Source: Pyrinomonadaceae bacterium (GTDB lineage Bacteria > Acidobacteriota > Blastocatellia > Pyrinomonadales > Pyrinomonadaceae). From it: DNA of 64,000 nt. Shown here in pieces: positions 1,346 through 58,112 of the stretch; the first letter of the stretch is position 1; each line of letters opens with the position of its first letter. The stretch covers positions 531 to 64,530 of the forward strand of contig DATBRN010000027.1 in NCBI GenBank assembly GCA_036560225.1, given 5' to 3'. The translations under genes and the position numbers were made by a program. The notes beneath the pieces were generated by a model that had not been told where the DNA came from, searched no databases, and worked only from the letters and a program-made list of their open reading frames with translations.

Positions 1346-2317
1346 ATGGCTGATTACAAGGAAAAGATAGACGAGTGGCAAAAGACGGTGCGCCGGAAGG
1401 CCCGCGAGCTGGACGAGAAATACGCAATCTCGGATCTGGTGGACGAAGGCTCCCGCCGCGCTGGAGAAGCTGCTAAACGCGGAGCTGAGACGATATCGGC
1501 TGGGGCGGAGAAGCTGCGGTCGGAGGCCGAGCGGCTGGCGGCAGAAGGCGACGTCGCCGATACGACCAGACGAGCCGCGGACGAGGCTGTGCGAGGCGCG
1601 GAGAAGGCTGGAAAGACATTCCGCAAGGCAGCAGGCGATGCCAGCAAAAAGGCCGGTGAAGTATTCGACGATGCGAAGACTTACTACGACCGAGCTTCAC
1701 AGTTTTATGACACCAGCGCCAAGGTTTCCCGTGCTTCAACGGCCGCCACTGCCGGCCTCCTGAAAGCGCGCGAATGGATCAAGGAAAACCCGGGGAAGGC
1801 GACCCTGGTTTCGTTTTCTCTGGTATTGGGCGTCCGCGCCGGCGCGGCCCTTCCGGGTCTGGATGCTGTGATGCTCGGCGTACATCCGCACTGGCTGACC
1901 CATTCTGCGCTGCCGCTTTTTGGAGCGCGAAAACTGAGCGAGAGATTTGATGACTACCTGCGTAAGCAGGAAGAACTTATTGCCAAAGGCGAGCTTGATG
2001 AAGCCGAACGCAAGCGCGTCGAGTTTCAACGCAACCTCACTAAATATGTCGGGGCGCCATTACTCGGAGCTGTTAGTTGCGCAGCGGGTGCAGCGATGTT
2101 CGCCCAAATTCTTCAACCCGGAAGTATTGCCGGCGCGCCCGTGAGCTGGCTGGTGGGCGGAAATCCATTTCTCGGCGGCGTCTGGTTGTTTGCTAATGGG
2201 GTGATCTGTTTCCACGAAGGCTACAAGTTTTTCATGATTGCGCTCGCCGACCAGGATGAAGTGAAACGCGTGGTCCGTGAGATTAAGGGACTCCTACCTG
2301 CGGCTGAAGTTGCGTAG
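1346..2317 (+). CDS. Hypothetical membrane protein: charged Ala/Glu/Lys/Arg-rich helical N-terminal half and hydrophobic multi-TM C-terminal half
   Basis: 323-aa ORF. GGAAAGG lies upstream of the ATG. Composition suggests coiled/amphipathic repeats (AGEAAKRGAE, AEKLRSEAERLAAEG) followed by several hydrophobic segments. I recognise no family. Confidence 0.6.
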   Translation: MADYKEKIDEWQKTVRRKARELDEKYAISDLVDEGSRRAGEAAKRGAETISAGAEKLRSEAERLAAEGDVADTTRRAADEAVRGAEKAGKTFRKAAGDASKKAGEVFDDAKTYYDRASQFYDTSAKVSRASTAATAGLLKAREWIKENPGKATLVSFSLVLGVRAGAALPGLDAVMLGVHPHWLTHSALPLFGARKLSERFDDYLRKQEELIAKGELDEAERKRVEFQRNLTKYVGAPLLGAVSCAAGAAMFAQILQPGSIAGAPVSWLVGGNPFLGGVWLFANGVICFHEGYKFFMIALADQDEVKRVVREIKGLLPAAEVA

Positions 2318-2446: not shown

Positions 2447-2963
2447 ACTCAATTACAGAACCGGAAGCGGTATCGATCGGATGCCGCCACTCAACGTCAC
2501 CTGTGACACTCAACTACAGAACCGTGAGCGGTAGCGACCGGATGCCGCCACTCAACCTCACCTGCGACACTCAACTATAGAACCGTGAGCGGTAGCGACC
2601 GGATACCCCCACTCAACGTCACCTGTGACACTCAACTACAGAACCGTGAGCGATAGCGACCGGATGCCCCCACTCAAGTTCTGCGGCCCACGCAATTACA
2701 CTGTGAGCGATATCGACCGCGGACCCGACTCAACTTTGCGTGAGTCGACTCAATACGGAACCGTGAGCGGTAGCGACCGGATACTCCCACTCAACCTAGC
2801 CTGGCCCACTCAACTTCTGCGGCCCACGCAACTACACTGCGAGCGATATCGACCGCGGGCCCCGACGCAACCTCGCGTGGGCCGACACAATACGGAACCG
2901 TGAGCGGCAGCGACCGGATGCCCCCACTCAACCTAGCCTGGTCCACTCAACTACAGAACCGTA
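2447..2963 (+). repeat. Tandem array (about 8-9 units of about 61 bp) of the CACTCAAC..GTGAGCGGTAGCGACCGGAT core, forward orientation
   Basis: Units such as cactcaactacagaaccgtgagcggtagcgaccggatgccgc + cactcaacctcacctgcga repeat head to tail. Variant units carry ..ctgtgagcgatatcgaccgcgg... Track ORF 2625-2903 is a translation of the array. Confidence 0.9.
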
Positions 2964-3090
2964 TGGTCAAAGAGTAAGCTCGATACCTCCTATGCCTTCC
3001 GTCAGTGACCTGTTACTTCTTCGGCTTCACCCCGGGCGCAACCCCTGCCTAGCCCACCGCCGCACAGTTGCAGTTGATTCGCTCAAGCTT

Positions 3091-3698
3091 GGTTCGGTGG
3101 GAGTATCCAGTCGCTATCGCGCGTGAGCTCAGGAAGTTGAGTGGGCCAGGCTAGGTTGAGTGGGAGTATCCGGTCGCTACCGCTCACGGTTCCGTATTGT
3201 GTCGGCTCACGCGAGGTTGAGTCGGGCCGCGTGTCGTTATCGCTCGTAGTGTAGTTGCGGGCCGCAGTAGTTGAGTCGACTAGGCTAGGTTGAGTGGGAG
3301 TATCCGGTCGCTACCGCTCACGGTTCCGTATTGAGTCGGTCCATGTAAGGTTGAGTCGGGCCGCGTGTCGTTATCGCTCACAGTGTGTAGTTGCGTGGGC
3401 CGCAGAACTTGAATGGTGGCATCCGATCGCTACTGCTCCCGGTTCTGTAGTTGAGTGGCGCAGCAGAGTTGAGTGGGGGCATCTGGTCGCAACCGCCACG
3501 GCTCAGTAGTTGAGTGGCACAGGTGAGGTTGAGTGAGGCATCCGGTCGCTACCGCTCACGGTTCTGTAGTTGAGTGGCGCAGCAGAGTTGAGTGGGGCAT
3601 CCGGTCGCTACCGCTCCCGGTTCTGTAGTTGAGCGACGCAGGTGAGGTTGAGTGGGGGCATCCGGTCGCTACCGCTTACGGTTCTGTAGTTGAGTGGT
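3091..3698 (-). repeat. Tandem array (about 10 units) of the same element in reverse-complement orientation (GTTGAGTGG..ATCCGGTCGCTACCGCTCACGG)
   Basis: Read directly. With 2447-2963 it forms a head-to-head pair of arrays around a unique centre of about 130 bp. Confidence 0.9.
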
Positions 3699-3733: not shown

Positions 3734-4753
3734 TTAAGTAAGTGTGATGGGAAAAGGAATGAAGGAGAGCGCAAAAACAGTCAGAGTGATGATTGCCACG
3801 ACAATGCGGCCGCGACCCAATGGTTCCATCTGTTCCGGCGCTGGATGACGCACCTTCAACATGATTGCCAACAGGACCGTATAAAGAAAACCGCTCGGAC
3901 TGCCATGCCAGATGAATCCCAAAACTGACATTACAGCGACTGTGACAAAGGCAAGCCGGCCGATTAGCTGGTGGGCGCGTTCTCCGAATACCGCAAACGT
4001 TCCGTGTCCGCCATCGAGCTGACCTACAGGCATCAAATTCAAGCTAGTCACCAGCAGACCAAGCCAGGCGGCCATGTAAAAGGGATTGGGCAATGCGTCG
4101 GCAAGATTTGCACCCGTGAGTTTTGCAATTATCTGAAAAAGCAACGGGTCGTTAAAAATGATCACCGGACCAGCAGTTCTAGGTGCCGGCTGAAGCGTTA
4201 GTAGTCCCCCCAAAGCGATAGGAAACAAGGCGACGAAGCCTGCCAAAGGTCCGGCGAGGCCGATATCAAAAAGCGCGCGACGTGAGGGAATCGGCGACTT
4301 CATCTTTATGAACGCGCCGAACGTACCGGCCAGGAAAAGCGGTGGAGCGGGAATAAAGAATGGCAGCGTCGCCCTGACGCGGTAATAGCGACAGGCAAGG
4401 TAATGACCCATTTCGTGGGCCGTAAGTATTGTCAGTAGCGCTGTTGAGAAAGCTAATCCCTGTTTGATATAGCTGGGATCGGCAAGAGCTCGCGAGAGAA
4501 GGTCGCCCACAATTCGTACATAGTATTCTGGAATATACAAAACATAACTGAGTAAGCCAGAGAGAGCGGGCGCTGGGGGATCCCCCGCCGGGGCAGCGAT
4601 GACGATTCCCGCGAAAGTAGTAGTGACGAAGGTTAGCAGCAATAGAGTAATGTGCTTTATCCATTCGCGAGCAGTGGGACTTGTCAGAGAACGCGGTGGC
4701 AAAACATTCTGGGCCGGCACAAACGGCGGAATTGTCTGAACTGATTCTGACAT
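3734..4753 (-). CDS. Site-2 protease family (peptidase M50) integral membrane metalloprotease
   Basis: 339 aa, multi-TM, with the HEMGHYLACRYY (HExxH) motif in a TM segment and a downstream NLMPVGQLDGGH motif. Confidence 0.8.
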   Translation of the reverse strand: MSESVQTIPPFVPAQNVLPPRSLTSPTAREWIKHITLLLLTFVTTTFAGIVIAAPAGDPPAPALSGLLSYVLYIPEYYVRIVGDLLSRALADPSYIKQGLAFSTALLTILTAHEMGHYLACRYYRVRATLPFFIPAPPLFLAGTFGAFIKMKSPIPSRRALFDIGLAGPLAGFVALFPIALGGLLTLQPAPRTAGPVIIFNDPLLFQIIAKLTGANLADALPNPFYMAAWLGLLVTSLNLMPVGQLDGGHGTFAVFGERAHQLIGRLAFVTVAVMSVLGFIWHGSPSGFLYTVLLAIMLKVRHPAPEQMEPLGRGRIVVAIITLTVFALSFIPFPITLT

Positions 4754-9589: not shown

Positions 9590-10897
9590 CTAAAACCTAA
9601 AACCCACTCCGGCGCTAAATTCAAAATTGTGAATCGTTTCCTTGGCTGTAGTCGTTGGGTTGAACGGGAAAGGCAACACATTACTGCCGTAGCGGATCAT
9701 CGTGTCGCCGCCGTCGAAACGCGAGACTATTCGCCGCGAAGGATAGAATTCAAGAACACCTCCGAGATCGAACGAGAAATAGGTTCTTCGCTCAAGATGA
9801 AAGATTGGGAACGGGAACGGCTGGCTTGTATCGAAGCCGTCAAACGAGAGTGTCTTGCTGAAACTGACAACACCTGGTCGAGCTTTCCCGAAGAGGCCAA
9901 ACTTCTCGAACCTTTTGCCTAACTTAATTCCTGCCTGCCCCTGAAGGGTTCTACCTCCCGCCCTGGCGTTATTGAACAGCGCGGAATCGCGCGGGAAAAA
10001 ATCTCCCTGCGCCTCTAAAGCAAAGCTTGGTGATACGTTGAAAGTGAATCTGCCGCCAAAACCTGCCTGCGTTTTGGTATCCCGAAAGTCGGGTGCCGAA
10101 AAGAAAGGCTCGGTGCTTGAAATGTGCTCGACCTCGGTAAAACCCAGGGACGAAAACTGGGCTCCCACCTCGAATTTCTGAACCTTTTCCTGCGGAGCCT
10201 GAGTTGTACTCTCAGGCTCTATCGAGCCAAGTCTAAAGCCGATCCCGGCGCTTAGCTGGAAGTTATGACGAACTCCGGGACTCGGAAGCGGGTTTGGACT
10301 GAATGGGAAACCGGAGCCTTTGCCGTAATTGATAATCGTGTCTCCAACATCGATGCGGGTTAGCACCTTTCGCGAGGGATAAAACTCGAGTACGCCACCA
10401 AGGTCCATCGAGAAATACGTTTTCCGTCTGTCGTCGAATACGGGCAGCGTAAGGGGTTGTCCGTTAAAATCGATGGTCGTAGTACCAACGATCGTGAGGA
10501 CCCTGCTGAAACTGGCAAAGCCAGGCCGCGCCTTCGCGAAGATGCCGAAGTTGCGAAATCGTTGGCCCGCTTTGATTCCAAACTGGCCCTGAGTCAGACG
10601 GCCTGCGTTGTTGGGATCAGTAGCACTCTCATGAGGAAAAAAATTTCCCTCAGCTTCGAGCGCGAGATGCTTCGTAAGATTGAACGTGAATCTGCCGCCA
10701 AATCCCGCCTCTGTCCTGCCTCTTTCAATGGTCAGAATAGCGCCTCCTGGTGGAGGCAATGAGCCCAATGACAGTGACGAGAACTGGATGCCAACTTCGA
10801 TCTTCGACGGGGCCTCTTCTTCCTGTGCATGGACCATGTGACCCGAGAGGATTGTAAGCGCCAGTACCGGGCTCGCAAGGAACATAACTTTTTTCAT
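9590..10897 (-). CDS. Outer-membrane beta-barrel protein built from two tandem homologous halves
   Basis: Signal peptide MKKVMFLASPVLALTILSGHMVHA. Both halves contain K(I/F)EVG(I/A)QFSSL.. and AGFGGRFTFN..ALEA(E/Q)G(N/D)FFP. C-terminal GVGFRF. Confidence 0.75.
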   Translation of the reverse strand: MKKVMFLASPVLALTILSGHMVHAQEEEAPSKIEVGIQFSSLSLGSLPPPGGAILTIERGRTEAGFGGRFTFNLTKHLALEAEGNFFPHESATDPNNAGRLTQGQFGIKAGQRFRNFGIFAKARPGFASFSRVLTIVGTTTIDFNGQPLTLPVFDDRRKTYFSMDLGGVLEFYPSRKVLTRIDVGDTIINYGKGSGFPFSPNPLPSPGVRHNFQLSAGIGFRLGSIEPESTTQAPQEKVQKFEVGAQFSSLGFTEVEHISSTEPFFSAPDFRDTKTQAGFGGRFTFNVSPSFALEAQGDFFPRDSALFNNARAGGRTLQGQAGIKLGKRFEKFGLFGKARPGVVSFSKTLSFDGFDTSQPFPFPIFHLERRTYFSFDLGGVLEFYPSRRIVSRFDGGDTMIRYGSNVLPFPFNPTTTAKETIHNFEFSAGVGFRF

Positions 10898-11054
10898 TTG
10901 GGTTTCCGCACCCTTCGTTGTGATTCGTTGGAGGGCTCCAAGCAGGGGGATCTCCCGAGGAATCTACCGAGATGACGACGCGACAGAAGCTGAAGGTGAG
11001 CGCGAGAGAGAAATTTCGGTTCGTGCCGGCCATGCGACACGATTGCTCTCACGA

Positions 11055-12368
11055 TTATTCCTCTTCGGGCATCCTCAATTCACCTGTCGTCAGGTCTGGT
11101 CTTTCACGGGCCATGTCTTCCGGAGTTGTGTTTAGGTCCGGATGAGTGGGCCGCAAATCTTTATCTATGGGAAGAGTAAGATCGTTAGTTGCCACGCCCC
11201 CGGCTGGGCTTGGTTCCAAAAGATCGGCGAGGCCTTCGCTACCGCGATGTTCAAGCCAATGGCGATAGCTGACTGTCAGAATCGCAACTACGGGAATCGC
11301 GAGAAAGATTCCCGCCACGCCGGCAAGCTCTGCGCCCGAGAGGATAGCGATGATTACAGCGAGAGGATGTAAGTGTATTCCCTGGCCAATCAAACGCGGA
11401 TAGACCACGTAGTCTTGAATAATGCGCAGCACTATCAGGAATAAAAGTACCAGGAAAGCGGAGAACAGACCCCCATGCAGCACTGCCGCTACCGCGGCTA
11501 ACACCGCGACCAGCAATGGACCAACGAGAGGAACAAATTCGCAAACGCCGGCGATGATACCCAGGACCAAAGGACTGGGAAGTCCCAGCAGCGTGAACCC
11601 AAGCGCGCAGACGACGCCGATAAAGACGCAGGCGGTTAATTGGGCGCGAATGTAAGCGGCTAGCGTGCTGTTGATGTCCTGAAAAAACTCGTCACCGCGC
11701 CAGCGCCATCGTCCCCGTGGGAGCATCTGTAGAGCGGAGCGGCGAAAGCTTTCCGCGTCTTTCAGAAAAAAGAAACTCAGGATAGGAATAAGAACCAGCC
11801 ACGGAATGTAAAATCCCCAACCGGCGACAATCGTCAATACACCGCTAGCCGTCTGACTGACCTTCTCGATCACACCGGGAATGGCGCGATTGATTGCATC
11901 GAGCAGAGGTGCGGGCATTTGATGCGTGCGGAAGTATTCAACCCAGCTTTGCATCTTAGTGCCGACGGCGGTCCAATAACCGCGCGCCTGCTCAGCAAAC
12001 TCCGGAAACTGGCTTCCCAACCGCGGCGCCAGCACGTAAATGCCAATCACGATTGTCGCGATGATGATGATATAGGAAAGGCCAATGGCCAGGGCGCGCG
12101 GTAGAGAAAATTTCCGTCCGGAGAAACGCCGGGGCCGGCTGAGAAATTCGACCAGAGGGGCGACTAAGTATGCAAAGAAGACGGATAGAATCAACAGCAG
12201 GATGACGCCCGTTAGCTTTACGATTACCCACCGCGCCACTTCGAATAGGTAGTACGTGAGGAGGGCGATAAGAGCTATGCGAAGGATCGCGCGGTTTTGC
12301 AGCCAGTTTGCTTCAGCCGCAACCTTCGCAGCGGTGCGCGCAACATCTTTAGTTTCGTGGCTCGACAC
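11055..12368 (-). CDS. AI-2E family transporter (PerM/UPF0118)
   Basis: 437 aa, about 8 TM segments, with typical FFLKD..F motifs and GLPSPLVLGIIAGVCEFVPLVGPLL. Confidence 0.8.
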   Translation of the reverse strand: MSSHETKDVARTAAKVAAEANWLQNRAILRIALIALLTYYLFEVARWVIVKLTGVILLLILSVFFAYLVAPLVEFLSRPRRFSGRKFSLPRALAIGLSYIIIIATIVIGIYVLAPRLGSQFPEFAEQARGYWTAVGTKMQSWVEYFRTHQMPAPLLDAINRAIPGVIEKVSQTASGVLTIVAGWGFYIPWLVLIPILSFFFLKDAESFRRSALQMLPRGRWRWRGDEFFQDINSTLAAYIRAQLTACVFIGVVCALGFTLLGLPSPLVLGIIAGVCEFVPLVGPLLVAVLAAVAAVLHGGLFSAFLVLLFLIVLRIIQDYVVYPRLIGQGIHLHPLAVIIAILSGAELAGVAGIFLAIPVVAILTVSYRHWLEHRGSEGLADLLEPSPAGGVATNDLTLPIDKDLRPTHPDLNTTPEDMARERPDLTTGELRMPEEE

Positions 12369-13240: not shown

Positions 13241-13390
13241 GCCGAGTTCCGAGTTCCGATGTTAATACTTCTTAACTGATGACGCATCGCGCATCTAGGC
13301 CGAAAGTTGACCAACGGACGATCGGGATTCCATAACCTAACGAGTCGGAACCCGGAACTCGGAAACTCGGAACTCAAAACTCGGAACTGG
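13241..13390. repeat. Inverted pair of heptamer tandem repeats (CGAGTTC x2-3 versus CGGAACT x6-7) around a spacer of about 80 nt
   Basis: gccgagttccgagttccgat at 13241-13260 and cgagtcggaacccggaactcggaaactcggaactcaaaactcggaactgg at 13341-13390. Confidence 0.8.
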
Positions 13391-27591: not shown

Positions 27592-27910
27592 ATACGGAAC
27601 ACGGAGCGGTAGCGACCTGATGCGCCCACTCAACTACGGAACAGGAAGCAGTAGCTGATGCCACACTCAACCTGATACGGAACAGGGAGCGGTAGCGACC
27701 TGATCCGCCCACTCAACTACGGAACAGGGAGCAGTAGCTGATGCCACACTCAACCTGAAAGGAAAATGGCAATACGGAACAGGGAGCGGTAGCGACCTGA
27801 TCCACCCACTCAACTACGGAACAGGAAGCAGTAGCTGATGCCACACTCAACCTGAAAGGAAAATGGCAATACGGAACAGGGAGCGGTAGCGACCTGATCC
27901 ACCCACTCAA
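27592..27910 (+). repeat. Tandem array, forward orientation, of the GGAACAGGGAGCGGTAGCGACCTGAT..CCACTCAAC core alternating with a GGAACAGGAAGCAGTAGCTGATGCCACACTCAAC variant
   Basis: Read directly. It is the same core family as 2447-2963. Track ORFs 27503-27712 and 27713-27910 are translations of the repeats. Confidence 0.9.
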
Positions 27911-27952
27911 CTAGGTCTTACTTTCTTCGAGAGAGTCTTTCGATCTTTTAGG

Positions 27953-28270
27953 TTGATCGTAGCATCAGGTCGCTACCGCTCCCTGTTCTGTAATGAGCTT
28001 ATCCTCGCTCTCATAGTTTCTGCCATCGGGTTTTCGATCCAGTTGAGTGGAGCATCAGGTCGCTACGGCTCCCTGTTCTGTAATGAGCTTATCCTCGCTC
28101 TCATTCTTTCTGCCATCGGTTTCCAATCCAGTTGAGTGGAGCATCAGGTCGCTACCGCTCCCTGTTCTGTAATGAGCTTATCGTCGCTCTCATAGTTTCT
28201 GCCATCGGGTTTCGGGTTTCCGATTCAGTTGAGTGTAGCATCAGGTCGCTACCGCTCCCTGTTCTGTAAT
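27953..28270 (-). repeat. Tandem array (3.5 units of about 89-95 bp) of the reverse-complement core GTTGAGTGGAGCATCAGGTCGCTACCGCTCCCTGTTCTGTAATGAGC plus a conserved spacer
   Basis: Units start near 27953, 28043, 28132 and 28222. The inter-core sequence is itself conserved between units. Confidence 0.9.
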
Positions 28271-47785: not shown

Positions 47786-47869
47786 GAACAGAAGACAGAA
47801 AGCAGAAGGCAGAAAGCAGAAGGCAGAAGGCAGAAAGCAGAAGGCAGTAGGCAGGGGCAGACGGCAGGG
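47786..47869. repeat. Heptamer tandem array, GCAGAAG family (about 12 copies)
   Basis: gaacagaagacagaaagcagaaggcagaaagcagaaggcagaaggcagaaagcagaaggcagtaggcaggggcagacggcaggg. Same motif as 1031-1157. Confidence 0.9.
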
Positions 47870-48957: not shown

Positions 48958-51900
48958 TCACGCGGGGCGGCGAAGGTAGGAGCGAAGTTGCGGTGGGGTT
49001 GCCTTGCGCAGCAACGCACTCTTGGCTTTCCATTCCATGGTGCGACTGAGTTCGACCAGAAAGCGCGTTTCTCCAGACTCCAGGATTGTTATCGGTTCGC
49101 CGTTGCGATAAAGGATTCGGTTGGAAGTGTACGCGGTGACACGACCACCCGGGGTTATGATGCCCACCAGATTCAAAGGATCGGCGGCGCTCACCGAGAT
49201 CAAACTTTCCTGGCCCGTACCTCCTTGAGCATCACCGGTAGACTCGTCAGCGCCCTGAGCAGGTGAGCGTAAACCAAAATCCATCGCTCCGGTTCGCGTG
49301 CGTCGTATTGCGCGCAACATTCCCACGGCATCCGGCAAGGCAAACTGCTCGCCGGAAATTCCCGCTACGAAACGCCCTCCGCGAATCTCGCCGCGCGCTT
49401 CCAGTCGATGATAGATCCGCAGCAGCACACGCCAGGGCAACGCTATACCCTCGCGCTCTAGCAGGCGTTTGAAAACTACCCCATAGCGTTTGAGCAGAAT
49501 GCGCGCAATATTCTCGGCAGCCTCTGGATCGATGTTTGAGTCATCCCTCAAACTGCCATCGGGCGACCGCTGCAGCAGCGACCAGCGTCCCGCGCTCGAC
49601 ATTTCGTAGATAGGCTGCCGGTGCTTGCGGCGCGACGCTGCCTGAGTCTTGCGACTACCGGGAGTTAAGAGAGCACGAAGTCCCGCGAAACTATCGGAAA
49701 TAACTAGTCCGTTAGCCACTAATTCGCCCAGCGACTCCTCCACCTGGCTGCGCAACAGTCCTGTGCCTTCGACGATGTCGGTGAAGAAAGAAGCGCCGCG
49801 TGTCCCCAGATAGTCGTGAACCGCGCGAGTAGTTGTTGAGAATTCGACTTCACCCACTGACGGTTGTGGAAACACTGAGTTCCAGATGGCGAAGTTCTTG
49901 CGTCGCAGGAGTGCGATCGGAGTGTTGCGCACGGGAACAGAACCACGCGCTCGCTCTACACCCTTTTCGGAGTTTGCTGCACGTGATGCCGCTGAAGACG
50001 GCGCGGGTGGAGTCAGCCTTGCCCAGACGACTTCACCCGAAAGACATAAAGCATCGAGCCACGCAGGATCGTATTCAAGCAGCCGGCTCGGCAACAGTTC
50101 TCCTTCCCAGGCAGCTGCCGGGGCTTCGAAACCTTCGAGTTGCTCGATGATTGCTCTAACGCTTTCTGGCCCTTCCATTTGATGGTCAGGGGCGACTTTT
50201 TGCCAGGCGAGAAGATAACGCATGAAATCGGCTGTGGAGACTGGCTCGATCTCCTGCCGCAAACGATTGAGTGTGTAACTGTGAATCCGGGCCAGGAGAC
50301 GCCGAGCCGACCATTCAGTTTCCGTACCTCCCGGCGTGAACTGCCCTCGAATTACAAAGCCCTCTGCTTCGAGCTTGAGAAGAGCTGATTCGATGTCATT
50401 CGTGCTGAGGCCAAAGGAGGAGGCAAGCGCGCCGGCCGTTACGGGCCCAAGACCCTCCAAACGTCCGCGCAGGACTTCGACCAGAGCGTCTTCGAAGGTC
50501 CATGCAACTTGCCCGAGACTTTCAGGCGCGACGATTGGCGGTGTCAGCAGGGCAGAGGGGTAAATAGTTTTCAGTTGCGGCAAGCGCTCAGCAGCGACCC
50601 AAAGATTTAGCTTGTCTATTGGGACCGTGTTTACTGGGCCGGTTAATCCTGGGGCCGCGGGCGTCTCGCCCGCACCCGTTGCATTCCCAGGCAAGTCCAA
50701 GTTAACGGGTTGTTCGCGCTCCGCGCTCAGTGCGGGCGAGACGCCCGCGGTCCCAGGATTAAGGGTCCCAGTATTAACTAGTCCAGTATTAACGGTCGCA
50801 GCATTAACTTGAAGAATAGCGGCACGTCGGTCGTTTTGCAGCTCGGTAAAAAACTGCTGCCATTCCGCGCCTTCGGCTGCAGTAATCAAACCTAACTCCA
50901 CGAGTGCGTCATGCAATTCGTCTGGATTTTCGACCCGGGGCCAGGCTTCTTCACGAACGCGATCGATAGCGGCCTGATCGAGTTTGCCCATGTCCTTCGC
51001 GGTTTGTGGGTCGAGCCAGCGTCGCTGTTGCACCGCGCGAGTGCGGCGCTCTTCAAGCGGGGCGTCGTCTAGATAGGCATATGGTCGAGCGTTAAGTATC
51101 TCCTGGGCCAGGGGCGAAGCTTCGATCACATCGCGAGCAAACAGGTTCTTTTCGTTGCGTTCAATCGACGTCAGCAACTTTTCAAGACTGTCAACGTCCA
51201 TCGCTTCCACCAGGCAGTCCTTAACTGTCTGATCGATCAAGGGATGCGCTGGAATCTCGCGTTCCCCACCACCAAGGTTCTCCGCACAAGCCACTTGATC
51301 GGGGAATATCGCAGTCAGCAGGTCCTCTGCATCCATGCGCTGCAATTGCGCAGGAATCTTCTTGCCCCCGCGGCGCCGCAAAACCGCCAGAGAACGAGTC
51401 ACGTTCCAGCGCCAGCGAATATTCCACATCGGCGCGTCAAGCAGTGCCTGGCACAGAAGCTGGCGCACAGTCTTGGAGTTGAGATAGTGAAACACCTCAT
51501 CGAGTGGAAAACTGTGGGTGGGCCCAAGCGAAAGGACGATTGCATCCTCGGTCGCCGCAGCCTGGAGCTCAAAATTAAACTTGCGGCAAAAACGCTTGCG
51601 CAACGCTAAACCCCAAGCTCGATTCAGGCGGCTGCCAAACGGTGAATGCACCACCAACTGCATGCTGCCGCTATCGTCGAAGAAGCGCTCGAGAACGAGG
51701 TTGTCCTGCGTTGGCATGATGCCAAGCACGGCCTTGGCTCCCGCAAGATACTCGACGATCTGTTCCGCCGCCGCGCGGGAGATGCCAACCTCGTCCACTA
51801 GATATTTAGTTGCGGGCTCGAGATTAATCGTGGGCGGAATCATCGGATCTGCTTGCTCGGGAGGTAATGGTTCGTCGCTGACATCAACACGGTTTGCAAC

Positions 51901-53697
51901 CTCTTCGCGCAGGCGCGAGACGGAAACTGAAAGTTCGTGAGTACGGGCCGGCGCTTCACCCAACCAGAATGGAATCGACGGCGGCTGGCCATGTGCATCC
52001 TCAACCCGAACTTTACCCTGCTCGACACGCAACACGCGCCAGGAAGTGTTGCCCAATTGAAAGATGTCGCCCTGCAAACTCTCGATGGCGAAGTCTTCAT
52101 TCACCGAGCCGATTACGAGATCGCTGGGTTCAAGTACAACCGCATAATCCGCCGTGTCGGGAATTGCCCCGCCGGAAGTGATTGCCGAGATGCGGGCATT
52201 GCGACGCCCGCGTATTCGGTGATTTACAGCATCATGGTGGAGGTAGGTTGAGCGGCGTCCGCGCTTTGTGGAAAATCCTTCAGCGAGCATGCGAATGACC
52301 GAATCAAACCTCTCTCTTTCCAGGTTCCGGTAAGGATAGGCATGCCGGACCATCTCAAAAAGAGCTTCTTCGGTCCATTCTTCAGCGGCCGAGGCAGCGA
52401 CAATTTGTTGCGCAAGAATGTCGAGCGGCTGTTCCGGAATGTCGAGACGGTCAAGTTCGCCACGGCGCACGGAATCAATTATTCCAGCGCATTCCACGAG
52501 CTCGTCGCGCGACAGCGGGAAAATTCGTCCTTTGGGAAAACCGGCCACGGTGTGATTTGAACGGCCAACACGCTGTAAGAAACTGGTAATCGAACGAGTA
52601 GAACCGAGCTGGCAAACTAGATTGACGTCGCCGATGTCAATGCCGAGTTCGAGCGAAGCTGTAGCGACCAGCGCGCTTAGTTCGCCGGCCTTCAATCTTT
52701 GCTCGGCGGCCAGGCGTTGTTCACGCGCAAGGCTGCCATGATGCGCGGCAATATTTTCATCGCCGATGCGTTCGCCCAGATGGCGGGATACACGTTCGGC
52801 AAGTCTTCTGGTGTTAACAAAAACGAGGGTTGTTTTGTGTTGGCGAATTAATTGCGCTAACCGGTCGTAAACTTCTTCCCAGACGTCGCCTGACATAACG
52901 GCTTGCAATGGGGATTCAGGAAGCTCGATAGCCAGATCCAGGCGGCGCGTATGTCCGGTGTCGATAATGGTACAGACAGGCGCGCCTCGGGAATCAATGT
53001 TTTGCGTGCCTACGAGAAAACGCGCAACTTCCTCGATAGGGCGCTGGGTTGCCGAAAGGCCGACGCGAACGAGTTTCGAGTTCCGGGTTTCGAGTTTCGA
53101 GTTTTCTGCTTTGTGCTTGGCAACGAGCTGTTCGAGGCGCTCAATGGAAAGTGCGAGATGGGAACCACGTTTGTCGCTGACGACCGCGTGAATTTCGTCA
53201 AGGATAACGGTGCGCGTCGTTTCCAACATGCGACGTCCGCCTTCGCTGGTAAGCAAAATGTAGAGAGATTCCGGCGTCGTCACAACAATATGAGGAGGAC
53301 GCTTAGTCATTGCGGTGCGATCTCCAGCTGGAGTGTCGCCCGTTCTGACAAAGGTCCTGATGTTGACGTCGGGCAAACCCATCGCTTGCAGTTCGTCCCG
53401 AATGCCCGCTAGCGGAAACTGCAAGTTTTTTTGAATGTCGTTGCTCAGCGCTTTAAGCGGCGAGACATAAACAACGTGAGTTGTGTCATCGAGATTCCCG
53501 TCAATTCCGAGGCGCACGAGATCATCAATCGCGGCCAGGAAAGCGGCGAGAGTTTTTCCTGAACCGGTGGGTGCAGCAATCAAAGTGTTCTGATGCTCTT
53601 TGATTGCCGGCCATGCTTGTTGCTGCGGCAGCGTCGGCTCGGGAAAACTCTTCGCAAACCACCGGGCAACCGCTGGATGAAATACCTCGAGATTCAT
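48958..53697 (-). CDS. lhr: Lhr-type large ATP-dependent DEAD/DEAH-box helicase
   Basis: 1579 aa with [13 protein letters not shown] (motif I), VILDEIHAV (motif II), [18 protein letters not shown], and a long Lhr-like C-terminal extension. It carries in-frame repeat insertions at 53070-53106 and 50618-50810. Confidence 0.88.
50618..50810. repeat. Composite repeat inside lhr: ATTAAC-type short tandem repeats flanking two oppositely oriented GC hairpins
   Basis: The hairpins are GCGGGCGTCTCGCCCGC and GCGGGCGAGACGCCCGC. ccgcgggcgtctcgcccgcac (50655-50675) and gtgcgggcgagacgcccgcgg (50730-50750) are exact reverse complements. The composite matches the intergenic element at 2327-2389. Confidence 0.85.
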
Positions 53698-56738: not shown

Positions 56739-58112
56739 TTACACATTCTTCGCGCAGCGGAAGCCCGAAACCATCCAGCGTTCGTGCGCGTGAAAGAAGT
56801 TGCGGTAGGTCGAGCGAATATGGACCCCCGGTGTCGCGTATGAGCCGCCACGCAGGACTTTTTGGTTGACGAACCACTTATCGTTGTACTCTTCAAACTC
56901 CGATTTGAATCCGGGATAGGGCACGTAGTCTGAAGTCGTCCATTCCCACACGTCGCCGATCATCTGTTGACAGCCATACCTGTTTTGTCCTGCCGGAAAG
57001 GCGCCGATTGGCGCGGGTGCCCAGAGGCCGGTCTCAAACAGGTTTGCTTTAGTCTCGTCGATTCCCTCATTGCCCCAGGGAAAAGCGTTCCTCTCATTAG
57101 TGGTTGGGTCGAAGGTGGCGGCTTTTTCCCATTCAGCCTCGGTCGGCAAACGTTTGCCGGCCCATTTTGCGAACGCGGAAGCCTCAAAAAAACTTACGTG
57201 TGAAACGGGTTCGTTCGCCTTGCTTTCAACCGGATGCAGACCAGAAAAGTCGCGAATCATCCAACTTCCGTCGTAGGGTTCCCAGTAGAGTGGCGCCCGC
57301 CACTGTTCACGATTAACAGTCTCCCAGCCTTCGGAGAACCACCAGCGAAAGTTCTGGTAGCCGCTATCCTGGATAAACGCGAGAAAGTCGCCATTGCTGA
57401 CCAATCTTCGATCAAGAGCGTAATCCTGTAAAAAAACCTGGTGGGCTGGCTTTTCGTTGTCAAAGGCGAAGTCGTAGCTAGAAGGACTGTGCACTGTGGA
57501 CTGTCGACTGTGGACTTGTCTGTCGTAACCAAGCCAATAAAGTCCCCCCTCGATCTCAGCCATGCCTTCGACTTTGACAGCAGACACCGGCGCAGGTTTT
57601 ATCGGCGCTTCATATTGGTCGCACAGCAGGTGCTTGATGTCATAGACCAGCAATTCCTGGTGCTGCATTTCGTGCTCGAGGCCAAGCCGCGCGAGTGATA
57701 AGACTTCATCCGCGTTGGCCGTTTCTTCAATTGAATTCAAAAACGCAAGCATTTGCTCATCAACGTGTTTCCGATACGCAACGGTGTCTTTAACCGTCGG
57801 CCGCGATCGGGTCCCGCGCTTCGGTCGCTCTATTCGTTCGCCGAACCCTTCATAATAGGAATTGAAGTAGAAGAGGTACTCCTCAGAGTAAACCCCGTAG
57901 CCGGGCTGGTAAGTTTGCAGTAGAGTCTCGAAAAACCAGGACGTATGGCCGATATGCCAGCGCGGAGGGCTCATAAACTCCGCCGTCTGTATCACGTAGT
58001 CCTCAATCTCCAGAGGCGCAACGATCTGCATTGTCCGCGCACGCACATCCTTGTAGAGTTCGATAATTGAGCGCGTCTTTGGAACAACGATTTCCCCGAT
58101 TGTAGAAGCCAT
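56739..58112 (-). CDS. egtB: EgtB/OvoA-family sulfoxide synthase (DinB-like N-terminal domain plus FGE-sulfatase-type C-terminal domain)
   Basis: [61 protein letters not shown], and GDVWEWT..RGGSY. It contains an in-frame heptamer array at 57484-57525. Whether the substrate is sulfur or selenium is unknown. Confidence 0.8.

Follow-up and report, generated by a model that had tools for sequence, protein, structure and literature searches.

What is the 1.25-kb intergenic block at positions 2447-3698 of the stretch of DNA studied here? The window, by which I mean the whole stretch of 64,000 nucleotides, is C27:531-64530 of G000, the metagenome-assembled genome (MAG) of a soil Acidobacterium from the Pyrinomonadaceae (Blastocatellia), with 5.58 Mb in 412 contigs, a G+C content of 53.7% and a contamination of 6.4%. 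The block consists of two tandem arrays of a short repeat that face each other across a centre. It is very probably a non-autonomous element of the REP/RAYT type (repetitive extragenic palindrome and REP-associated tyrosine transposase; the REPtron/TIRtron systems), that is, a small mobile repeat in a copy that lacks the gene. It is read as selfish DNA because the same pair of facing arrays lies on either side of an IS200-like tyrosine transposase gene at another place in the genome. The association with this gene, deletion derivatives, whole elements in several copies and empty orthologous sites were all observed. On this reading, the block is a known kind of selfish DNA rather than a new regulatory device. 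Its strictly convergent direct arrays and kilobase-scale palindromes are unusual.

Structure of the block

The block is made up of the following parts.

2447-2963, plus strand: left arm, a direct array of about 8-9 REP-like units
2452-2487, 2512-2548, 2574-2607, 2635-2669, 2752-2787 and 2889-2922, plus strand: left-arm units matching a profile hidden Markov model (HMM)
Near 2700-2722 and 2836-2858, plus strand: left-arm variant 'GAGCGATATCGACC' units
2944-2963, plus strand: truncated left-arm unit
2964-3090, no strand: centre of the palindrome, about 127 nt
3091-3698, minus strand: right arm, about 10 reverse-complement units in the mirror order of the left arm
3163-3198, 3297-3332, 3416-3451, 3536-3570, 3595-3629 and 3656-3690, minus strand: right-arm units matching the profile HMM
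Near 3100-3130, 3227-3246, 3361-3380 and 3478-3510, minus strand: degenerate and variant right-arm units
2725-3222, no strand: inner composite element, made of the inner units and the centre, whose counterpart stands alone on contig C51

A preliminary description of this DNA, made from the letters alone, had counted about 8-9 direct units and about 10 reverse-complement units. Both counts hold, although the exact numbers are as assembled from short reads. The profile HMM, built from the whole family, recognizes 6 plus-strand and 6 minus-strand units as strong, and the gaps between them are filled by 'GAGCGATATCGACC' variants (two per arm) and degenerate units. According to Tandem Repeats Finder (TRF), the left arm has a period of 61 nt at 2447-2795/2815 and then a composite period of 137 nt at 2669-2952. 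The right arm has periods of 59, 119 and 134 nt within 3133-3697. A repeat search found colinear mirror-image arms; among them, 2507-2609 is 93% complementary to 3594-3696, and 2691-2829 is 87% complementary to 3121-3259. Folded as single-stranded DNA (ssDNA), the inner 701 nt form one hairpin of -315 kcal/mol, compared with -121 kcal/mol for shuffled sequences (z = -44). The arms are thus able to pair, as had been proposed.

Is the block made only of one core element around a unique centre, as was first stated? Both sequence variants that were described are indeed present, but the block has more than one kind of unit. The outer units are of the type 'CTACAGAACC..GGATGCC', and the inner part is a composite of 'ATACGGAACC..GGATACTCC' units and the 'GAGCGATATCGACC' variant. 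The centre is not unique either; the inner part at 2725-3222, centre included, is 81% identical to C51:37284-37777, where the copy of the centre itself is 80-85% identical. The outer 'CTACAGAACC' units are missing at C51. Since the inner composite exists alone there, a nested or composite origin of the block is suggested. A further palindromic element, unrelated to this one (C51:37780-38100, arms ATCCCACCCCACGTCAGTGGGTGGAT...), is nested within this array at C51, in its right arm.

A dispersed family with one polarity

Is this block a single case? A genome-wide census of the core, which the preliminary description had called for, revealed a dispersed family. With at most one mismatch allowed, the genome contains 288 occurrences of the 14-nt core GAGCGGTAGCGACC and 3 of the reversed control, and nhmmer found 317 units at 113 loci. 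The unit is about 40 nt long and has a conserved part of about 30 nt (CAGWACCGnRAGCGGTAGCGACCGGMYGC) bounded by ACTCAAC. The units fall into several subtypes, and arrays of the family have periods of 41, 61, 89 and 137 nt.

All 58 two-sided loci have plus units followed by minus units ('+...+ then -...-'), and the opposite order was found at none. Contig 5′ ends hold minus units and contig 3′ ends hold plus units; therefore, the assembly broke inside palindromes. The number of units per arm varies from 1 to 8 without regularity. Unequal arms such as '+-------' and '++++-' show that the two sides of an array change independently, and the difference in copy number between loci fits expansion and contraction, in keeping with the earlier idea of recombination or slippage. 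By crude ORF (open reading frame) calls, no ORF of at least 100 amino acids (aa) lies within the two-sided loci except for the transposase gene described below. A reading as a CRISPR or as iterons was dropped, since the 'spacers' themselves are repeated and mirrored and the family is spread over 113 loci.

The window contains a second locus.

27592-27913, plus strand: left arm, four strong units (ACGGAACAGGGAGCGGTAGCGACCTGATCC) alternating with shortened units
27959-28270, minus strand: right arm, four units with an 89-nt period

This locus, 27592-28270 as a whole, has the same design as the block. Its centre (27904-27958) matches that of another locus, C387:31792-31846, at 86% identity.

A transposase gene between facing arrays

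Which gene goes with these arrays? A search of the genome with the Y1_Tnp model (Pfam PF01797) gave a weak match at C290:10800-11006. The locus on contig C290 of G000 is arranged as follows.

10329-10599, plus strand: array of five units of the window's own subtype
10698-11207: Y1/HUH transposase gene with a 170-aa product (P0001)
11428-11663, minus strand: array of five units of the window's own subtype

The gene stands exactly between its plus and minus arrays. P0001 passes the Pfam Y1_Tnp model with 28.9 bits against a cut-off of 23. Of the NCBIfam models, REP_Tyr_transpos and IS200 transposase fit it best, both far under their cut-offs. Among 10 homologues, the first histidine of the HUH motif (H100-V-H102) is invariant, the second is kept in nine, and the catalytic tyrosine Y160 is invariant in all. 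An AlphaFold (AF2) model of P0001 has a pLDDT (predicted local distance difference test) of 77.8. In a Foldseek search, its top match is 4er8_A, the REP-associated tyrosine transposase of E. coli (TnpA-REP) in complex with a REP hairpin, with a TM (template modelling) score of 0.50. The IS200, ISDra2 and IS608 transposases follow (2f4f, 2xma and 2vjv). P0001 is related to more than 3000 clusters in the databases, for which JGI uses the name 'REP element-mobilizing transposase RayT'.

The arrangement recurs in related genomes. In G001, G003, G005, G006, G014, G015, G018, G019 and G021, the P0001 homologues all lie between facing arrays of the same unit or of a variant unit, such as TACAGAACCGAGCGCGGTAGCGCCGGATGCC in G003 and CAGTACCACCACGCGGTAGCGGGTGGGT in G014. 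When 41 genomes were compared, a homologue was present in 11 of the 14 unit-rich genomes and in 6 of the 27 unit-poor ones (Fisher p = 8e-4).

G000 has other Y1 genes at C48:9100-10470, C100:39200-40450 and C302:41200-42200, and each lies between facing arrays of its own, unrelated hairpin units. This layout is therefore common in the lineage. The REP family of the C48 gene has about 90 copies per strand and forms both '+-' and '-+' doublets; therefore, strict polarity is specific to the family found in the window.

Gene-less derivatives and multi-copy elements

Do gene-less arrays derive from a gene-bearing element? At C362 and C357, the array centre aligns to the C290 element in three collinear segments and most of the gene has been lost, and the C199 and C411 arrays retain 28-62 codons of the C-terminus of the Y1 gene. 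Some gene-less arrays are thus internal-deletion derivatives of the gene-bearing element and still contain pieces of the gene.

Whole elements, with arms plus centre, are also present in several copies at different sites. A minimal element of 185 nt consists of one unit, a centre of about 100 nt and one inverted unit. At least seven copies share the arms and the full-length centre at 78-86% identity while their flanks differ, and two further copies of this type share part of the centre at different sites. C132:3596-3732, C185:14458-14594 and C407:24155-24290 are near-identical (91-96%) copies of one minimal element whose flanks are similar in at least two cases. These three may be strain variants binned together in the MAG, given its contamination, rather than true paralogues.

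The unit hairpin

A unit is predicted to form an imperfect hairpin, CCGnGAGC-GGTA-GCGACCGG, with two G.A mismatches. Stem pair -3/14 covaries, being C.G in 197 units and A.T in 60. GGTAG, which is invariant in 278-282 of the 282 units, sits in the predicted loop. Relatives keep a GGTA-loop hairpin with different stems (GCGC/GCGC in G003 and CCACC.CGC/GCG.GGTGG in G014), and the hairpin is stronger there, with z = -3.7 for the G014 unit.

Evidence that speaks against the assignment

Several observations weigh against a REP/RAYT-type element. With 27.9 bits against the NCBIfam REP_Tyr_transpos model, whose cut-off is 80, P0001 is far from the curated RAYTs. Neither sequence nor profile searches of the PDB gave a transposase match for it; only the fold search did. 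The hairpin of the units in this genome is weak (DNA fold z of about -1.2), and its GTAG lies in the loop. In classical REPs, GTAG stands at the foot of the hairpin and is the site cut by TnpA-REP, according to PMC3733652 and PMC2817692. Searches with tblastn and blastn found no remnant of the Y1 gene in the centres of the window's own loci.

Co-occurrence has exceptions in both directions. G002, G008 and G026 have many units and no detected Y1 homologue, and five or six genomes have a homologue and few units of the exact core. Moreover, the Y1 protein has 22 matches in G003, of which at least 12 are near full length, and in this it resembles an ordinary insertion sequence (IS) rather than a single-copy RAYT. 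These G003 copies are an IS-like proliferation of a 'RayT'. A single-copy, vertically inherited ('domesticated') transposase is thus not what was found, because the gene is multi-copy in G003 and G000 has one intact copy plus remnants (C411, C199 and C292). One of the G003 copies (L093:900-2350) is flanked by 40-nt-period arrays of 6 and 5 units.

A regulatory device?

Could the block instead be a cis-acting device of the host that is kept by selection, such as a bidirectional terminator, an insulator between convergent genes or a stabiliser of 3′ untranslated regions? The two genes beside it are as follows.

1346-2317, plus strand: left flanking gene, a 323-aa conserved protein (ORF323) without a Pfam match
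3734-4753, minus strand: right flanking gene, a peptidase of family M50, 339 aa

The block therefore does lie between convergent genes, as was said at first, and it can fold into a very long hairpin. Enterobacterial REPs are reported to affect termination and mRNA stability (background given in PMC2817692 and PMC3733652). If the convergent position mattered, it should recur. However, of the 51 two-sided loci with callable neighbours, only 8 are convergent, 31 are co-directional and 12 are divergent, the last lying in promoter regions; this is close to the genomic background of 15% convergent, 69% co-directional and 16% divergent gene pairs, with gene calls that are crude in that only the longest ORFs were used. 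The other locus in the window has a minus-strand gene on each side. The proposal of an insulator or terminator for convergent transcription was not borne out by these contexts.

The orthologous sites also speak against a device. The convergent pair of ORF323 and the M50 peptidase gene is syntenic in about 60 Pyrinomonadaceae genomes, and the gap between the two genes is 0-120 nt in most of them. No array was found at any orthologous site examined, including the few longer gaps among those examined. The empty sites carry ordinary terminator-like hairpins, which speaks for such a device. The irregular number of units per arm also speaks against a device, as does the patchy distribution within the genus, where genomes have from 0 to about 200 copies and some complete ones lack the family. 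A selected regulatory role for the block is accordingly improbable.

The enlarged gaps of other species (L005, L012, L015, L021 and L033) were considered as arrays of this kind and were excluded on inspection. At this site, unrelated inserts of 0.6-2.7 kb occur (L012:6228-6317 and L035:4877-4969, and also L002, L023, L044 and L037, downstream of the M50 gene), and two of them duplicate the last 30 codons of ORF323. The intergenic site appears to be a hotspot of insertion.

Slippage or misassembly?

Might the arrays be ordinary minisatellite-like tandem repeats, produced by replication slippage and palindrome formation, with the Y1 gene there by chance or as a passenger? The unequal arms and the variety of periods fit slippage or unequal recombination. 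Nevertheless, slippage cannot spread a unit to 113 loci, nor can it yield inward polarity at every one of the 58 two-sided loci. It also leaves aside that in 10 genomes arrays stand on both sides of the Y1 gene, their unit variants changing along with the protein, and that whole elements with conserved centres are multi-copy. This explanation is very unlikely.

An assembly artefact, in which short-read repeats were collapsed or joined into chimeras, is hardly credible: the MAG is fragmented and partly contaminated, many contigs end within arrays, short reads cannot resolve the copy number of an array with a 61-nt period and Logan contigs show many alternative joints, yet Logan contigs of two independent soil runs contain stretches identical to parts of the block, its centre and variant units among them, and G003 and G008, which have megabase-scale contigs, carry the same doublets, arrays and architecture.

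Comparison with known systems

To which described systems does the REP/RAYT-type element belong? REP/RAYT systems (REPtrons) and REPINs were described in Gammaproteobacteria (Nunvar 2010, PMC2817692; Bertels & Rainey 2011, PMC3116915), and the structure of the E. coli TnpA-REP is 4ER8. The preliminary description knew of no named family with this architecture. However, according to PMC2817692 and PMC3733652, REP/RAYT systems (REPtrons, REPINs and TIRtrons) are defined by inverted units around a Y1 transposase gene and by hundreds of gene-less copies. Such systems are recognised by a transposase gene that inverted repeats enclose, by extragenic copies in the hundreds, by doublets multiplying as units, by clusters that have captured 3′ ends of the gene, and by the joint occurrence of repeat and gene. 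Whether the unit matches a described family, a point on which the first interpretation was said to depend, can be answered in two parts. It does so in kind; it does not in sequence, as Rfam gave 0 matches at the gathering score over the whole 64-kb window.

The family shares with REP/RAYT systems short, extragenic, hairpin-capable repeats in hundreds per genome, a Y1/HUH transposase gene flanked by repeats in inverted orientation, remnants of the 3′ end of that gene inside repeat clusters, a repeat number that goes with the presence of the gene, and an invariant GTAG in the core. The 185-nt family resembles a REPIN in that an inverted doublet with a conserved spacer multiplies as a unit, and the block in the window is a much larger, multi-unit version. 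The differences are also clear. Each side is a convergent direct tandem array of up to about 10 units, without the alternation of bacterial interspersed mosaic elements (BIMEs) and without tandem REPIN doublets. The short, imperfect hairpin has GGTA in its loop, P0001 scores well under the curated RAYT model, G003 has several copies of the gene and G000 has decayed ones, and the host is an Acidobacterium, not one of the Gammaproteobacteria.

The REPtron/TIRtron scheme already includes a group of tyrosine transposases specific to Acidobacteria (Di Nocera 2013, PMC3733652). By their description, P0001 can be likened to the TIRYTs, which are IS200-like tyrosine transposases of Acidobacteria lying between inverted repeats of 30-45 nt that differ from classical REPs. 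Repeats of TIRtrons likewise occur as dispersed families, in dimers or clusters. The multi-unit direct arrays and the strict polarity do not figure in the parts of that paper that were read.

With the IS200/IS605 elements (IS608 and ISDra2), the family shares the fold of the transposase, the lack of a visible target duplication and deletion derivatives, and its mechanism would likewise probably involve ssDNA hairpins. IS200/IS605 elements have one hairpin per end, on the same strand and not inverted, whereas the ends here are inverted and reiterated. The BIMEs of E. coli are also composite intergenic clusters of REP units, sometimes next to a RAYT gene. Their units alternate with regular spacing; here, each arm has one orientation at all 58 loci ('+...+ -...-').

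How may the arrays be built and tolerated?

By analogy with E. coli TnpA-REP and IS608 TnpA, the Y1 enzyme may bind the small imperfect hairpin CCGnGAGC-GGTA-GCGACCGG in ssDNA, and may cut and rejoin near the invariant GGTAGCG core. Units or whole elements would thereby be copied or mobilised in trans. Direct arrays and mirror symmetry might then be built by reinsertion beside or inside existing units, together with slippage or recombination. Any effect on neighbouring genes, such as a hairpin at the 3′ end or termination, would be a by-product and not the reason for the existence of the block.

A more specific proposal is tentative and, on present grounds, rather doubtful. A divergent RayT-like clade of the Pyrinomonadaceae might make no REPIN doublets and build strictly convergent direct arrays by inserting units or elements on the inner side of existing ones. 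This would give layered, kilobase-scale near-palindromes, which would persist because the genus appears to be without SbcD. In a search for this Mre11-type hairpin nuclease (TIGR00619), none of 25 genomes of the genus gave a real match, not even those that are 99-100% complete; 21 had no match at E <= 0.001, and four had marginal partial matches (E of about 1e-4 to 1e-5). The same model matches 14 of 16 genomes of other Blastocatellia families. The lack of SbcD may explain the tolerance of long palindromes, as a correlation only.

In the apparent lack of SbcD throughout the genus there is a simple and testable reason for the survival of long palindromes. The convergent direct arrays, with arms of 500-600 bp, and the very divergent Y1 enzyme could help to test how such enzymes choose and multiply their substrates. 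The assignment extends REP/RAYT-type systems to soil Acidobacteriota. For annotation, it accounts for a large share of the 'orphan' intergenic repeats and contig breaks of the MAG, and it warns against regulatory over-reading.

Other repeats in the window

Directly left of the block lies a member of another REP-like family.

2360-2412, no strand: hairpin of the GCGGGCGTCTCGCCCGC family

This family has about 84 copies in the genome, and in the window it also occurs at 50657 and 50732. The GCGGGCGTCTCGCCCGC word has a depth of thousands in contigs of soil metagenomes and is therefore common to many organisms.

Tandem arrays with a strict 7-nt period (GCAGAAG, TCGGAAC, CAGAAGG and others) lie at gene boundaries at 1031-1158, 13345-13388, 47789-47867, 53070-53104 and 57484-57516. 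These heptamer repeats had raised the question of a cyanobacterial origin of the DNA. This was ruled out, as HIP1 is not enriched and the taxon is Pyrinomonadaceae.

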